Shown piece after piece: positions 420 to 48,747 of a stretch of 64,000 bases of DNA (position 1 is its first letter; each line of letters opens with the position of its first letter). The stretch is from a virus, in the IMG/VR virus record IMGVR_UViG_3300021541_000005. One strand, 5' to 3'. The notes below the pieces were generated by a model, which ran no database searches, was not told where the DNA came from, and saw only the letters and a program-made list of their open reading frames with translations. The translations under genes were made by a program, and so were the position numbers.

Positions 420-1043
420 ATGAGTATATATGATAAAATCGCTGATGTTCAAATGGAATTATTGGATGAGGAATTCAAAACAAAAAGAGGATATCATGGG
501 GAATATATGGGTTTGGAAGAGTTAACCTGTAAAATACTTCCTAAATGTTATAAACATGGTTTATTCTATTATTTCACTGCTAATGAAACTCATTTAATAT
601 TGAAAATCATTGACCGTGAAACTAAAGAAGCATTATCTCCAGCACCTCATGTCCGTTTACCAGAACTAAGCCGAGACATGAAAGTTGAAGGTGGGAATAT
701 TACTTATATGAAAAGGTATTTGTTAATGGATACTTTTCAGGTTATTGCTGAATCATTTGATCCTGATGACACAAAAGATGGTTTACCACCACAAAAGAAT
801 AATGATGCTAGCTCAGCACGTAAGAAAAACACTAAAAAAGAACCATCTGAAACAGTGAATGTGGATATTCCACAGTTATATAAGGATGCTTTAAAAGAAT
901 TGCGTACTGTTAAAGGATTAAATGATTCTGAAATTACAGTTTCTGCTATCAGAAAACATATTTTCAAGAATGGTACGTTTAATCAAACGGAAAGAGATGA
1001 AATTGCAAGATATGTTAAAACTACTTGGAGGCTTTCAAAATGA
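420..1043 (+). CDS. ERF-family single-strand annealing protein
   Basis: GGNITYMKRYLL...FDPDD resembles the ERF GSxxTYxxRY...DxD motif; RBS gaggagtga before ATG 420. Confidence 0.7.
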   Translation: MSIYDKIADVQMELLDEEFKTKRGYHGEYMGLEELTCKILPKCYKHGLFYYFTANETHLILKIIDRETKEALSPAPHVRLPELSRDMKVEGGNITYMKRYLLMDTFQVIAESFDPDDTKDGLPPQKNNDASSARKKNTKKEPSETVNVDIPQLYKDALKELRTVKGLNDSEITVSAIRKHIFKNGTFNQTERDEIARYVKTTWRLSK

Positions 1044-1357
1044 GTTCCTCCAATATTCATATTTTATCAGTAAGTCATTATAGGTTTGGTTTATCTTTCC
1101 TGGTGCAAGGTGAAACAGGCGAATATACTGTGGATTGGAATATTTACAAAGGATGGATTTGTGACTGTCCGCATCATCTTTTCAGGCATGCTTACTGCAA
1201 GCATATTGCTGCATGTAAAAAGTATGTCCTGGAGCATGGTTTGTTATTGCATGATAAATTATGGTTTGATGATCCAAAAAGTGATATTGTTGTGAATGGT
1301 GAAAGTGCTACTAGTCATACTTTAGTTGAGGAGGCTGTAAAAAATGGTAGTTACTAG
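1040..1357 (+). CDS. SWIM zinc-finger protein
   Basis: WICDCPHHLFRHAYCKHI = CxC-x9-CxH; ATGA overlap with upstream stop. Confidence 0.8.
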   Translation: MSSSNIHILSVSHYRFGLSFLVQGETGEYTVDWNIYKGWICDCPHHLFRHAYCKHIAACKKYVLEHGLLLHDKLWFDDPKSDIVVNGESATSHTLVEEAVKNGSY

Positions 1358-1703
1358 TGAAGATATTAAATCGGTTTATAATCATTTCTTTAAATTCCAA
1401 GAAGCTTATAAAAATCTTTTAGGTAATGTTCTTAAAGAGTTACCTAAAACCCTTTTTTATAATATTAGGGACATTGAATATGATGCTGCCTGTGATGGAA
1501 CAATTTATATTAATTTTGAGAATTGGCAGCAAATGCCTTATGATTCATTAGATGAAGTTGTAGATATTTTCAAAGGTATTTTTGAGAATGGTCATGAAGC
1601 TATGTTTAATGATTATATTTGGTATGATATGGATCCTACTTTTAATGATGATGAATTTAGTATAGGTATTAGATTGTTATCTTCTGTGAGGTGGGATGAA
1701 TGA
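1344..1703 (+). CDS. Hypothetical protein
   Basis: Overlapping operon arrangement, acidic 119-aa ORF. Confidence 0.65.
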   Translation: MVVTSEDIKSVYNHFFKFQEAYKNLLGNVLKELPKTLFYNIRDIEYDAACDGTIYINFENWQQMPYDSLDEVVDIFKGIFENGHEAMFNDYIWYDMDPTFNDDEFSIGIRLLSSVRWDE

Positions 1704-2101
1704 GTAATAAAACTAAAGTTACTCTCACTTTGGATACTGATTTGGTGGATTTGGCTAAAATCAGTTATCCTAACTTTAGTGGTAGGATGAATGAGTTGTT
1801 GAGCATTGATTTGCATGCTGAAACGGAAGAGTCTAAGCTTATGAAGGAGATTGCGAAATTACATGATGAATTGGAGATTAAGGAAGATAAGTTATGTGAT
1901 ATTCGTAAGAAACGTTCTGCTTTGGAAGGTGAGGCTTCTAATATTAAGGAGGTTTTATCCTGGGCCAGGAACATTTATGAGCGTAAAGGCGTGTTGGGTT
2001 TGAATATGTTGGAGCGTGAGTGTAAAAAGAAGAAAGTTTCTTTTAGTAAGATTAAGAATATTTTGGAGCAGGAGGATGTTGCTTTTGTCAATTTTGCATA
2101 G
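1700..2101 (+). CDS. Ribbon-helix-helix (CopG/CcdA-like) DNA-binding protein with coiled coil
   Basis: N-terminal KTKVTLTLDTDLVDLAK alternating strand then helices; central heptad pattern. Confidence 0.6.
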   Translation: MSNKTKVTLTLDTDLVDLAKISYPNFSGRMNELLSIDLHAETEESKLMKEIAKLHDELEIKEDKLCDIRKKRSALEGEASNIKEVLSWARNIYERKGVLGLNMLERECKKKKVSFSKIKNILEQEDVAFVNFA

Positions 2102-5166: not shown

Positions 5167-5484
5167 ATGACTATAATGGAAGAGTTACTTGAACAAAACA
5201 GGAATAAAAACCTTGGAGAAAAAGCAGCAAAAGAAGCTTTAGATAAAGTATTTGGTTATACTATTACCCAGGAACAATTAAACCAACTACAACATTGTGC
5301 GGGTGAACTATTTAACATAGGAACACATTGCCAGCAAAAATGGGATAAAAGTATTTGTTCTGGAACTGCTGAAGCATGTGAAAGAGAGGGTGCATTTGAA
5401 TTGTTAGATAAATTTTATAAAATGCATTACCGGTTAGTTAATGAGATTGCAGGTGATGTTAAAATTGATGGTGAGGTAGAATGA
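5167..5484 (+). CDS. Hypothetical protein
   Basis: Stop-start coupled. Confidence 0.6.
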   Translation: MTIMEELLEQNRNKNLGEKAAKEALDKVFGYTITQEQLNQLQHCAGELFNIGTHCQQKWDKSICSGTAEACEREGAFELLDKFYKMHYRLVNEIAGDVKIDGEVE

Positions 5485-5570
5485 CTCTAATTAGAATCCT
5501 TATGGTTGGCCTAGCAATACTTGTGATAATTTACATTGTTGAATATTTAATGAATATGGAGTTGCCCTAA
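5481..5570 (+). CDS. Small membrane peptide, 29 aa (not in ORF track)
   Basis: MTLIRILMVGLAILVIIYIVEYLMNMELP; RBS ggtgagg; ATGA overlap. Confidence 0.5.
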   Translation: MTLIRILMVGLAILVIIYIVEYLMNMELP

Positions 5571-5572
5571 AA

Positions 5573-5854
5573 ATGTTATTTAAAAATATGAGATTTTATG
5601 ATAAGCAAAGTGTATTGAATTCATGGAAAAGTAAAATACTAGAAAAAACATTAAATTTATTGGATGATGCTGGTATAAGTGTGCGGGTGACTGTTTTGAA
5701 AAGGTATATTGAATATCTACTTGAAGATACTCATTATGATCCGTACACTAATGTGTTTTATGAGCCTGTTAGTAGGTTTAAATTTAGTGCAGATATTTTT
5801 TCTACTATTGCTTTTGAGTATATTTGTGAGCATTTAGATGAGTTTAAAAAGTAA
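5573..5854 (+). CDS. Hypothetical protein
   Basis: 93-aa ORF with RBS ggag. Confidence 0.6.
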   Translation: MLFKNMRFYDKQSVLNSWKSKILEKTLNLLDDAGISVRVTVLKRYIEYLLEDTHYDPYTNVFYEPVSRFKFSADIFSTIAFEYICEHLDEFKK

Positions 5855-5866
5855 AGGCAGGAATGA

Positions 5867-6133
5867 ATGGCAGTATGTAAAGCGTGTGGGAAAGAATTTA
5901 CTAAAAAGTATAAAACTGAGAAATATTGTTGTGATGACTGTAGGGAAGTTGCTTTAAAGCAGCAATGGCGTAATGCTTCCCACAGGCATTATCACAAACA
6001 TAAAAAAGAATGGGGTCCTATTAAACGTTATGGTGTAGGTACTGGTACTTTAGGTCCTCATGCTAATACTGATTTTAATTGTGAGAAAGAAACTATCAAA
6101 CGTGAAATGGAACGTTTACGTTTGAAATCTTAA
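5867..6133 (+). CDS. Zinc-finger protein, last gene of the early operon
   Basis: CKACGKEF...YCCDDCR; followed by oligo-T tract. Confidence 0.7.
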   Translation: MAVCKACGKEFTKKYKTEKYCCDDCREVALKQQWRNASHRHYHKHKKEWGPIKRYGVGTGTLGPHANTDFNCEKETIKREMERLRLKS

Positions 6134-6137
6134 TTTT

Positions 6138-6167
6138 TTTTATTTTTATGAGAGTGTATAATGAAGA
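6138..6167 (+). promoter_or_regulatory. 30-bp motif copy 1 (candidate late promoter)
   Basis: TTTTATTTTTATGAGAGTGTATAATGAAGA, identical at 15896..15925. Confidence 0.6.
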
Positions 6168-6173
6168 TGAAAA

Positions 6174-6332
6174 ATGTGTAATCATGACAAATATAAAAAT
6201 TTTAAATCCATGGAAATTTATTGCAGAGAATGCAAAGAACACGATGCGTTATATGATCATGTCCATGATGAAGTTTTCTGCCGTCATTGTGGGAAGGTCT
6301 TACGCATGAATTATTTCTGGTTAAATTTTTAA
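6174..6332 (+). CDS. TFB/TFIIB-type zinc-ribbon mini-protein, 52 aa (not in ORF track)
   Basis: CRECKEHDALYDHVHDEVFCRHCGKVL = CxxC-x15-CxxC with the YD, E and G-x-V positions of TFB ribbons. Confidence 0.7.
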   Translation: MCNHDKYKNFKSMEIYCRECKEHDALYDHVHDEVFCRHCGKVLRMNYFWLNF

Positions 6333-6536
6333 AAGTAAAAAAACAAAAAAACTTGACGTTTTTTTTAAGTCAAATATGTTTACACGTTAACAAGCTTTGT
6401 CGGTTATAAAAGTAGTTTAGACAGCCATAATAGAATCATAAAAAAAATTTTGCTCCCATATTGAATTAAATTAAAAAATTTCTATTTGATTGTGATTTAT
6501 ACACATTTTCATCTTTTTTTCATAAACTTAAGTTGT

Positions 6537-6643
6537 GGAGATGTTTAAAAAGAAGACATTTATTTTTTCAGGTCATTGTGTTACATTTTGATGTGATGTT
6601 TATAATTCTTTCATCATTGAGGGTTTGAATCCCTTCATCTCCA
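6537..6643 (+). ncRNA. tRNA-like element or decayed tRNA (acceptor stem and T arm intact)
   Basis: GGAGATG/CATCTCC 7-bp stem plus discriminator A; GAGGG-TTTGAAT-CCCTT T arm; no paired D or anticodon stem. Confidence 0.5.
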
Positions 6644-15895: not shown

Positions 15896-15925
15896 TTTTA
15901 TTTTTATGAGAGTGTATAATGAAGA
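15896..15925 (+). promoter_or_regulatory. 30-bp motif copy 2 (candidate late promoter of the head operon)
   Basis: Identical to 6138..6167; partial inverted copy TATACTCATAAAAA near 16043-16056. Confidence 0.6.
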
Positions 15926-16104: not shown

Positions 16105-17154
16105 ATGGAGGTATTAACTATTCAAATAAAAAACATGGCTGTGAAAAGTGATGATCAGTTCTTATTCACTGCTCCCGTAATGATACCAGACAAACCAGAT
16201 TGTGATTATGAAAGGGGAGAGGGAACATTCACAGCAGAAGAAATACGATTCTTTAAAGAATCATTTCAGGATTATCAAATCATTGATAAGAATCATCAAG
16301 TATTCAAGGAGTTAGGGAGTGCTAAAAGCATTAAAGACCAAATGGTTGGAGACCCTGTAAATAGTTTCATCCTCGATGAAGAAACTACTTACAAACTCGT
16401 TAATGGTGGTACAGAAACTTATCCTGCGGGTACTTGGATGTTAACTTCAGATGTAACAGATCCAACTACACAACAAGAAATTGAAGATGGTATATTAACT
16501 GGTTATAGTCTATCAGTGCATCGTGAAGATATTGGACGATTAATCAAGAAATACATGGCTACTAAAGCTAGTGGTGGTCAGTTAATTCATGATATACCAA
16601 ATCCTAATGCAATCACTGTGAGCATTGTAAAAAAACCTTGTCAAAGTGGATCTAAACAATGTAAATTAAATGGAAGTGATGTTATGGGTGATGACAAAAA
16701 GACACTTGATAAAATCAGAGAAGCTCTTGGTATGGATAACCCAGGATATGCTACTAAATCTGATTTGGATGCATTAGCTAAAGAAATTAAAGAGGAAAAT
16801 GCTGCGGCTATGAAGTCAGCAGCTGAAGAAATGGGCACTACTATAAGTGATGCTATTAAAGAGGCTTTTAGTGAAGTTGGTGCTATTAAATCTAAAAAAG
16901 AACCTGATAATGACGATGATGATAAGGGTGGTTCTGGTGACAATAAACCAGCAGATACTGATGGTAATGACTCAAAACCAAACCCTGATGATGACGACGA
17001 TGAGGAACTTAAGAAAAAATCTAAAAAACCTAAAAAAGATGGTTCTAAACAAGGAAAAGTACATAATGGAGCAACTAAATCCAATAATACTGAAGATTTA
17101 GACACTTATGCGTTCCTTGGAAGAAACCCAGATGGTACAAGTAAAAATATTTAA
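16105..17154 (+). CDS. Prohead protease (XkdF/S78-like) with C-terminal scaffold region; true start uncertain
   Basis: APVMIPDKPD, GTWML and DGILTGYSL motifs; acidic low-complexity tail; precedes capsid gene. Confidence 0.8.
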   Translation: MEVLTIQIKNMAVKSDDQFLFTAPVMIPDKPDCDYERGEGTFTAEEIRFFKESFQDYQIIDKNHQVFKELGSAKSIKDQMVGDPVNSFILDEETTYKLVNGGTETYPAGTWMLTSDVTDPTTQQEIEDGILTGYSLSVHREDIGRLIKKYMATKASGGQLIHDIPNPNAITVSIVKKPCQSGSKQCKLNGSDVMGDDKKTLDKIREALGMDNPGYATKSDLDALAKEIKEENAAAMKSAAEEMGTTISDAIKEAFSEVGAIKSKKEPDNDDDDKGGSGDNKPADTDGNDSKPNPDDDDDEELKKKSKKPKKDGSKQGKVHNGATKSNNTEDLDTYAFLGRNPDGTSKNI

Positions 17155-41501: not shown

Positions 41502-41663
41502 TTATTCTAATTTTTTGACAGTTATTGTTTCTGTTTTTGTATCAATAATCCATTCGAGGGTTTCACCTTTTTTCAAATCTAACATGTCTCTTGCAAATGC
41601 AGGTACTGTTGTTGTTAAAGAGCCCGCTACTGATTGTATTTTTGTTTTATATTTCAATTCCAT
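41502..41663 (-). CDS. AbrB/MazE/SpoVT-type DNA-binding protein, 53 aa (not in ORF track)
   Basis: MELKYKTKIQSVAGSLTTTVPAFARDMLDLKKGETLEWIIDTKTETITVKKLE; RBS aggaggt; only minus-strand gene I can support. Confidence 0.85.
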   Translation of the reverse strand: MELKYKTKIQSVAGSLTTTVPAFARDMLDLKKGETLEWIIDTKTETITVKKLE

Positions 41664-48588: not shown

Positions 48589-48747
48589 ATGTGTAATCAT
48601 GACAAATATAAAAATTTTAAATCCATGGAAATTTATTGCAGAGAATGCAAAGAACACGATGCGTTATATGATCATGTCCATGATGAAGTTTTCTGCCGTC
48701 ATTGTGGGAAGGTCTTACGCATGAATTATTTCTGGTTAAATTTTTAA
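48589..48747 (+). CDS. TFB-type zinc-ribbon mini-protein (second copy)
   Basis: Copy of 6174..6332. Confidence 0.7.
   Translation: MCNHDKYKNFKSMEIYCRECKEHDALYDHVHDEVFCRHCGKVLRMNYFWLNF

Follow-up and report, generated by a model that had tools for sequence, protein, structure and literature searches.

In archaea, TFB recruits RNA polymerase through its zinc ribbon and the dock domain of the polymerase (PMC13502027). In Pol II, the B-ribbon sits at the RPB1 dock, where it clashes with nascent RNA of 12 to 13 nt (PMC7111264). A truncated form of this factor is known from Sulfolobus, where the TFB paralog TFB3 keeps the ribbon without the DNA-binding core and works in trans at the initiation complex, activating DNA-damage genes; its C-terminal coiled coil is essential, the ribbon alone is inactive, and a Zn-only form of 49 residues did not activate the target genes (PMC6101594). 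Viruses also carry pieces of the host initiation machinery, presumably steering the host polymerase with them: TFB homologs occur in some rudiviruses and in the Asgard viruses JinchiV1 and PBV300 (PMC9501531, PMC13700489). By their descriptions, these are full homologs and not ribbon-only proteins.

On how archaeal viruses take over or time host transcription, the papers surveyed name RIP, TFS4, and a few ribbon-helix-helix proteins as the only factors studied (PMC9501531). RIP (ORF145 of virus ATV) and the cellular protein TFS4 bind the polymerase and compete with initiation factors, with RIP partly mimicking the TFB B-linker (PMC9501531, PMC5715097). Both are small factors, like the protein described below, but they have unrelated folds and bind elsewhere (at the clamp and DNA channel, or at the NTP channel), and neither targets the dock with a copy of the B-ribbon. 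The Ogr/Delta proteins, small zinc-finger late activators of P2-like phages, touch the alpha subunit of the bacterial sigma-70 polymerase. They too are small zinc proteins of temperate tailed viruses, encoded next to the late genes; with no relation in sequence or fold, the analogy to the protein described here is one of role only.

Here we analyze a 52-aa zinc-ribbon gene at positions 6174 to 6332 (+) of a viral window, that is, the whole stretch of 64 kb that was examined. The encoded protein is a candidate, on the strength of its sequence, for how tailed viruses of Methanobrevibacter, a methanogen of rumen and gut, interfere with host transcription. Unlike cellular B-ribbons, it is virus encoded and stand-alone, with an N-[FY]-K motif ahead of the ribbon and a short aromatic tail behind it. 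TFB3 is crenarchaeal and cellular and has a coiled coil, whereas the viral protein continues for only 9 residues past its ribbon. Full-text searches, with the methanogen-virus compendium paper outside their coverage, returned no published description of ribbon-only TFB paralogs in methanogen viruses. To deploy a free copy of the polymerase-recruiting module would be a strategy both simple and new, and the copy would double as a ready probe for the contact between ribbon and dock. Proviruses with a member of the family are present in at least 18 of the 151 Methanobacteriaceae genomes sampled, rumen and gut methanogens included.

The virus and its host

The window consists of a 42,415-bp circular genome read 1.5 times, with an exact period and zero mismatches. 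Since the genome wraps, features before ~21,585 appear twice, and the ribbon ORF is found again at 48589 to 48747. The gene set comprises a terminase, a portal protein, a MuF-type head protein, tail genes, a tyrosine integrase, an ERF recombinase, and two tRNAs; the terminase, portal, and tail genes together with the integrase and recombinase mark the genome as that of a temperate tailed virus. DNA near-identical to the virus is carried on a 90.6-kb contig of a Methanobrevibacter MAG from goat ileum, and two other Methanobrevibacter assemblies contain related copies. The closest cultured virus was Methanobacterium virus Drs3 (42% identity in the large terminase). A megablast search with 6.2 kb of the virus against GenBank phages returned no match.

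A conserved ribbon gene between early and packaging genes

An earlier note on this DNA had described a 52-aa ORF with CxxC-x15-CxxC spacing, with YD, E, and G-K-V-L at TFB-typical positions, and without cyclin repeats, and this description holds in each respect. The translation (MCNHDKYKNFKSMEIYCRECKEHDALYDHVHDEVFCRHCGKVLRMNYFWLNF) places cysteines at C17, C20, C36, and C39, a spacing as in the TFBs of Methanobacteriaceae, within a ribbon of approximately residues 13 to 45 that is followed by the 9-residue aromatic tail RMNYFWLNF. Residues Y27-D28, E33, and G40-K-V-L align with the host-type TFB ribbon and with the Pyrococcus furiosus TFB ribbon (1PFT). Ending 9 residues past the ribbon, where the host TFB reads on into ...DxGPEWRAF, the protein is without a B-reader, a B-linker, and the two cyclin-fold repeats (PF00382) with which TFB binds TBP and BRE DNA, for which 52 aa leave no room and none of which were detected by Pfam.

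The ribbon gene differs from that of the related locus L036 by seven synonymous and two nonsynonymous changes, and dN/dS relative to L036, L005, and L006 is 0.04 to 0.28, with individual estimates of 0.04, 0.07, and 0.22 and a span of 0.07 to 0.28 for L005 and L006. It is under purifying selection and is a real, conserved gene. In six related viral contigs, the homolog is syntenic, lying after a gene for an 88-aa zinc-finger protein and ahead of the packaging genes. The genes downstream encode, in order, a membrane protein, the small terminase, and the large terminase, and the ribbon gene lies where early genes give way to packaging genes.

HMMER, run exhaustively over 1.8 billion representatives, recovered 12 relatives of the 52-aa protein, all of them small (50 to 108 aa), and a later profile search added further members of the family. 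A public protein collection already contains the 52-aa protein as a prediction, with S27e as its precomputed Pfam label. Neither the 52-aa protein nor a 156-aa long form had a tblastn match among GenBank phages at E values up to 0.01, a PHROGs search gave an unnamed family at best (E = 4e-4), and Rfam returned nothing at the ribbon gene or at the 30-nt motif upstream of it. An overlapping frame at 6148 to 6309 was rejected as a gene, with identities of 51%/40% versus 75%/58% for the ribbon frame, and it is gone in more distant relatives.

Sequence assignment of the ribbon

Taken alone, the 52-aa protein passes the Pfam cut-off for Ribosomal_S27e (PF01667; 28 bits against a cut-off of 24.5) and stays below the gathering cut-off of 29 for Zn_Ribbon_TF (PF08271; 24.2 bits, E = 2.4e-5), and the TFB assignment thus rests on the family profile. 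All of the first 13 aligned family members matched PF08271 (best E = 8e-11), with S27e also matched, more weakly, in 10 of them. Other members exceed the PF08271 cut-off, for example, those of L007 (42.1 bits) and L010 (29.6 bits). The earlier note had named the lack of an HMM or structural match as grounds for refutation, and both checks supported its reading, the PF08271 match being obtained for the family and, below the gathering cut-off, for the single protein.

Profile comparisons consistently ranked TFB ribbons ahead of S27e. Searched against all PDB sequences, the family profile had the P. furiosus TFB ribbon 1PFT as its top match (E = 8e-10, 41 bits), with eS27 at an E value of 3e-4. 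With hhalign, run against TFB-ribbon and S27e alignments built from Methanobacteriaceae genomes, the family matched the TFB ribbons at 98.3% probability (E = 1.7e-14, score 64) and S27e at 87.5% (E = 3.6e-6, score 30). In the host-like genome G001, the order of matches was the virus's own copy, a TFB N terminus (4.5e-11), a 167-aa ribbon protein, a second TFB (2.4e-7), a 90-aa ribbon protein, and S27e (1e-3). Matches at E values up to 1e-6 were found in 148 of 151 Methanobacteriaceae genomes; among the matches listed, open frames of at least ~315 aa were taken as TFB N termini, and these scored 37 to 51 bits. Small stand-alone ribbon copies, some scoring up to 82 bits, were present in at least 18 of the 151.

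Pairwise comparison by BLASTP gave 41% identity over 41 residues between the viral protein and a host-type TFB (E = 7e-9), including an identical CRHCG, versus 29% identity to the host S27e. The conserved columns of the family (C, C, D, H/R, D/G, E, C, C, G, and V) are the conserved columns of TFB, and both have an Asn at the fourth position past the final Val. The C4 spacing, the Asp/Glu/Gly/Val columns, the Asn after the last strand, and a three-stranded fold are shared with the B-ribbons of archaeal TFB and eukaryotic TFIIB, Brf1, and Rrn7, and it is the TFB/TFIIB/Brf1 ribbons that gave the best profile, pairwise, and structural matches. Where TFB has Arg-Gly, the viral family mostly has His-Asp.

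Ribosomal S27e (eS27) belongs to the same clan and has the same cysteine spacing, which accounts for weak cross-matches. True S27e proteins from 30 Methanobacteriaceae genomes scored 70 to 94 bits on PF01667, and on the NCBIfam S27e equivalog model NF001629 the 52-aa protein scored 23.1 bits versus a cut-off of 70. The conserved C-terminal part of S27e (KxxGGK...EVL) is missing from it. Judged by these comparisons, the 52-aa protein is a paralog of the TFB-type N-terminal ribbon (B-ribbon), neither an S27e nor merely a generic ribbon. JGI annotation labels two members of the ribbon family, P0008 and P0025, as "ribosomal protein S27E." Given the profile results, these names are probably misannotations.

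Predicted structure

The AF2 model, built from 29 sequences, is a three-stranded ribbon (strands at residues 25 to 28, 33 to 36, and 42 to 45) with a short terminal helix and a mean pLDDT of 72. Foldseek returned no significant match (E values above 0.1), and most of its top twenty rows were TFIIB, TFB, or Brf ribbons, the TFIIB ribbons superposing with an rmsd of 1.1 to 1.6 Å over 31 to 33 residues. In an exhaustive VIA-align scan, yeast TFIIB ranked first (Z = 4.1) and Brf1 second (Z = 3.8, rmsd of 1.4 Å over 37 residues), followed by the TFIIS ribbon and 1PFT (Z = 3.3). Ribbons of TFIIB, Brf1, and TFB thus head both structure searches, with scores that are low in absolute terms (Z of ~4 or less) and that we therefore use solely as consistent with the sequence result. 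In these models the fold alone does not single out TFB, and low scores are to be expected for 40 residues.

A repeated 30-nt element upstream of the ribbon and head genes

The earlier note had also pointed to a 30-bp motif just upstream of the ribbon gene, through which that gene might regulate itself. This motif (TTTTATTTTTAT-GAGAGTGTATAATGAAGA) occupies positions 6138 to 6167 (+), 6 nt upstream of the ribbon ATG, and has a second, exact copy at 15896 to 15925 (+). The second copy is in the 506-nt gap that separates the tRNA genes from those for the head protease and capsid, the first ORF of which starts at 16105. The full element (TTTTATTTTTATGAGAGTGTATAATGAAGA) occurs exactly twice per genome, both times on the coding strand. 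Its 18-nt core, at up to three mismatches, was found six times in the 1.5-copy window versus 0.19 expected from shuffles, which corresponds to two exact copies and one weak copy per genome. The weak copy (GTGAGTGTAAAAAGAAGA; 2016 to 2033, three mismatches) lies within the end of an RHH-like gene at 1700 to 2101.

Related viruses retain both the element and its layout. The position of the upstream copy is kept in L036, L005, and L006, with four to seven mismatches, and the two-copy arrangement was also found in G002, which holds the L005 virus, and in G003, the host genome of L036. Within each genome, the two copies carry the same genome-specific variants. In G002, both have GAGAGTATATAGTGAAGA; in G003, the core of the window is kept and TTTCTATTGTAT replaces TTTTATTTTTAT in both. 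Relative to the ribbon gene, an ATG inside the element is in frame in L005 but not in the window, so coding does not account for the conservation. For the same reason, the motif was rejected as a coding start (MRVYNE), its frame relative to the ribbon gene differing between genomes. Conserved and covarying in relatives, the motif is real and behaves like a functional cis element.

We consider the element a candidate core promoter, with a T-rich, TATA-like part followed by the conserved 18-nt core. A start ~22 to 25 nt past the T-rich part would fall at the end of the element and would yield a leaderless or nearly leaderless message. Downstream of the gene, a run of eight T residues (6359 to 6366, +) begins 27 nt after the stop codon, and no stable hairpin was found that could act as a terminator after the ribbon gene (z-score of +1.1). 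Archaeal polymerases terminate at oligo-T, and the T8 run could be such a termination signal, making the ribbon gene a unit of its own. In a relative from bovine gut (~90 to 95% identity), the contig joins 6333 directly to 6668, so the 334 nt that separate the ribbon gene from the packaging genes are dispensable. A tRNA-like match within this spacer (6537 to 6643) scored 21.6 bits with the Rfam tRNA model, below the cut-off of 29.

The zinc-finger neighbor and the search for a TFB core

Directly upstream of the ribbon gene lies zf88 (5867 to 6133, +), which encodes the 88-aa zinc-finger protein, with a CxxCGxxF...YCxxxC pattern and a basic middle. In a profile search, the ribbon gene proved to be immediately preceded by a zf88 homolog in the window, in L036, L005 to L008, and L016, and in the proviruses of four further genomes (L053, L056, L074, and L033). 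In L009, L052, and L010, it lies 1.3 to 2.9 kb upstream. The protein belongs to phrog_13750, a family without an assigned function; comparison with solved structures gave no clear match, and Pfam, PHROGs, and solved structures together yielded no informative homolog.

An arrangement related to this gene pair is found in Drs3 (L110, 3347 to 4234), where a stretch resembling zf88 (E = 7e-6) lies in the same open frame as gp17, just upstream of the annotated GTG start of that gene. The sole Pfam match of gp17 is PF08271, a TFIIB-type ribbon, at 21 bits. No ATG, GTG, or TTG precedes the zf88-like stretch in the open frame. The stretch could belong to a longer fusion protein whose start is unusual, or it could be a decayed remnant.

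A partner carrying the cyclin-fold core of TFB was sought in the virus genome. None was found by Pfam in 26 ORFs, and with hhalign none of 22 ORFs exceeded a probability of 2.4% against an alignment of full-length TFBs. The 93-aa protein encoded two genes upstream of the ribbon (5573 to 5854) has 25 invariant columns in 14 sequences and an AF2 model with a helix-helix-hairpin-helix arrangement (pLDDT of 80); it had no PDB match by sequence or by fold (Foldseek). Within these searches (Pfam on 26 ORFs, hhalign on 22, and the fold of the 93-aa protein), no TFB-core companion of the ribbon was detected in the virus genome.

Viruses of higher G+C content (L011 to L015, ~5200 to 5680) have a 134- to 156-aa form of the gene with two ribbons, directly downstream of a gene for a 150-aa protein in which Pfam found no domain. 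The N-terminal extension of the long forms (L012 and L016) was considered as a fused copy of the 88-aa protein and rejected (hhalign probability of 0.7%).

Possible roles of the free ribbon in transcription

The reading that we rank first, tentatively and at a probability of roughly 40%, is that the free ribbon is a competitor at the dock of the host RNA polymerase, expressed with the late genes. The viral ribbon would occupy the dock domain, the site of TFB's own ribbon, and by competing there would lower TFB-dependent recruitment of the polymerase; it may also get in the way of RNA leaving the enzyme. The shared 30-nt promoter-like element would drive its expression along with that of the late genes. 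Since nothing in the ribbon would hold promoter DNA or TBP, we see it mainly as a competitor. Since the Zn-only fragment of TFB3 is inactive, a bare ribbon should not be an activator by itself, and it is this, together with the dock site presumably shared with TFB, that places competition first. What we infer is docking on RNA polymerase and either competition with TFB or redirection of the polymerase; that the effect would be inhibitory is the point of which we are least sure. The virus needs the host polymerase for its own late genes, however, and unless its level or timing were tuned, a general competitor under a late-type promoter would harm the virus as well. The conserved zinc-finger neighbor also suggests that the ribbon may not act alone.

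That neighbor is central to a second reading, which we regard as doubtful: the ribbon might be the polymerase-recruiting half of a two-piece activator specific to the virus, with zf88 or another viral DNA binder holding the 30-nt element while the ribbon brings RNA polymerase there and turns on the late operons. In its favor, zf88 lies immediately ahead of the ribbon gene in at least 11 loci, which come from several host genera, and in Drs3 a zf88-like stretch shares one open frame with the TFIIB-type ribbon of gp17, although no ATG, GTG, or TTG lies ahead of it there. In each genome, one copy of the element stands before the ribbon gene and another before the head genes, and the pair covaries. 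A precedent exists in Sulfolobus TFB3, a truncated TFB that activates using its ribbon and a second domain (PMC6101594). Against such an activator, zf88 has no informative homolog, and in the window the element lies between the zf88 and ribbon genes, so the two are probably not cotranscribed. The sites of archaeal activators usually lie upstream of the TATA box; the conserved 18-nt core is instead downstream of the T-rich part.

Equally doubtful, in our view, is a small zinc-ribbon regulator that works away from the dock, for example, as a DNA or RNA binder on the 30-nt element or on viral transcripts, whether derived from TFB or only resembling it. Zinc ribbons have been put to a variety of uses. 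Among the ribbons of the clan are ribosomal and nucleic acid-binding ones, several of which match weakly here, and the family has features of its own: the N-[FY]-K motif before the ribbon, the frequent His-Asp in place of the TFB Arg-Gly, and variable basic or aromatic tails. The likeness, however, is specifically to TFB ribbons and extends to nearly every conserved TFB column, including the Asn past the final Val. To our knowledge, all characterized members of this ribbon type (TFB, TFIIB, Brf1, and Rrn7) bind the dock of their polymerase, which also argues against a role elsewhere.

More speculative still, and improbable on what the sequences suggest, is that tailed viruses of the Methanobacteriales have their own two-piece initiation factor, in which zf88 or, in other lineages, a different partner would read the virus-specific 30-nt promoter and the ribbon would recruit the polymerase. 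If true, late transcription would partly bypass the host TFB, and a virus-specific system of promoter recognition would be described for the first time in an archaeal virus. Least credible by far is that the protein copies or mimics ribosomal S27e and becomes part of host ribosomes: the S27e score of the single protein on Pfam (28 versus 24.5 bits) and the two JGI names favor it, but the far higher scores of true S27e on the same Pfam model, the equivalog score of 23 bits against a cut-off of 70, the missing C-terminal part, and profile comparisons favoring TFB by ~18 bits (PDB sequences) and by 35 score units (hhalign) all oppose it. A related ribbon protein is present in the cultured virus Drs3, which makes the idea of a free polymerase-recruiting module testable at the bench.

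Additional observations

In L032 (contig C20 of the host-like genome G001), one of the two TFB genes of that genome, at 715 to 1716 (-), has no ATG, GTG, or TTG in its frame upstream of the zinc ribbon, the first such codon falling only after the first CxxC. This may reflect an unusual start or a local sequence error. In the virus, a 53-aa AbrB/MazE-like ORF (PF04014, E = 8e-4) on the opposite strand, at 41502 to 41663 (-), lies between the integrase and the early genes and is a candidate lysogeny repressor.
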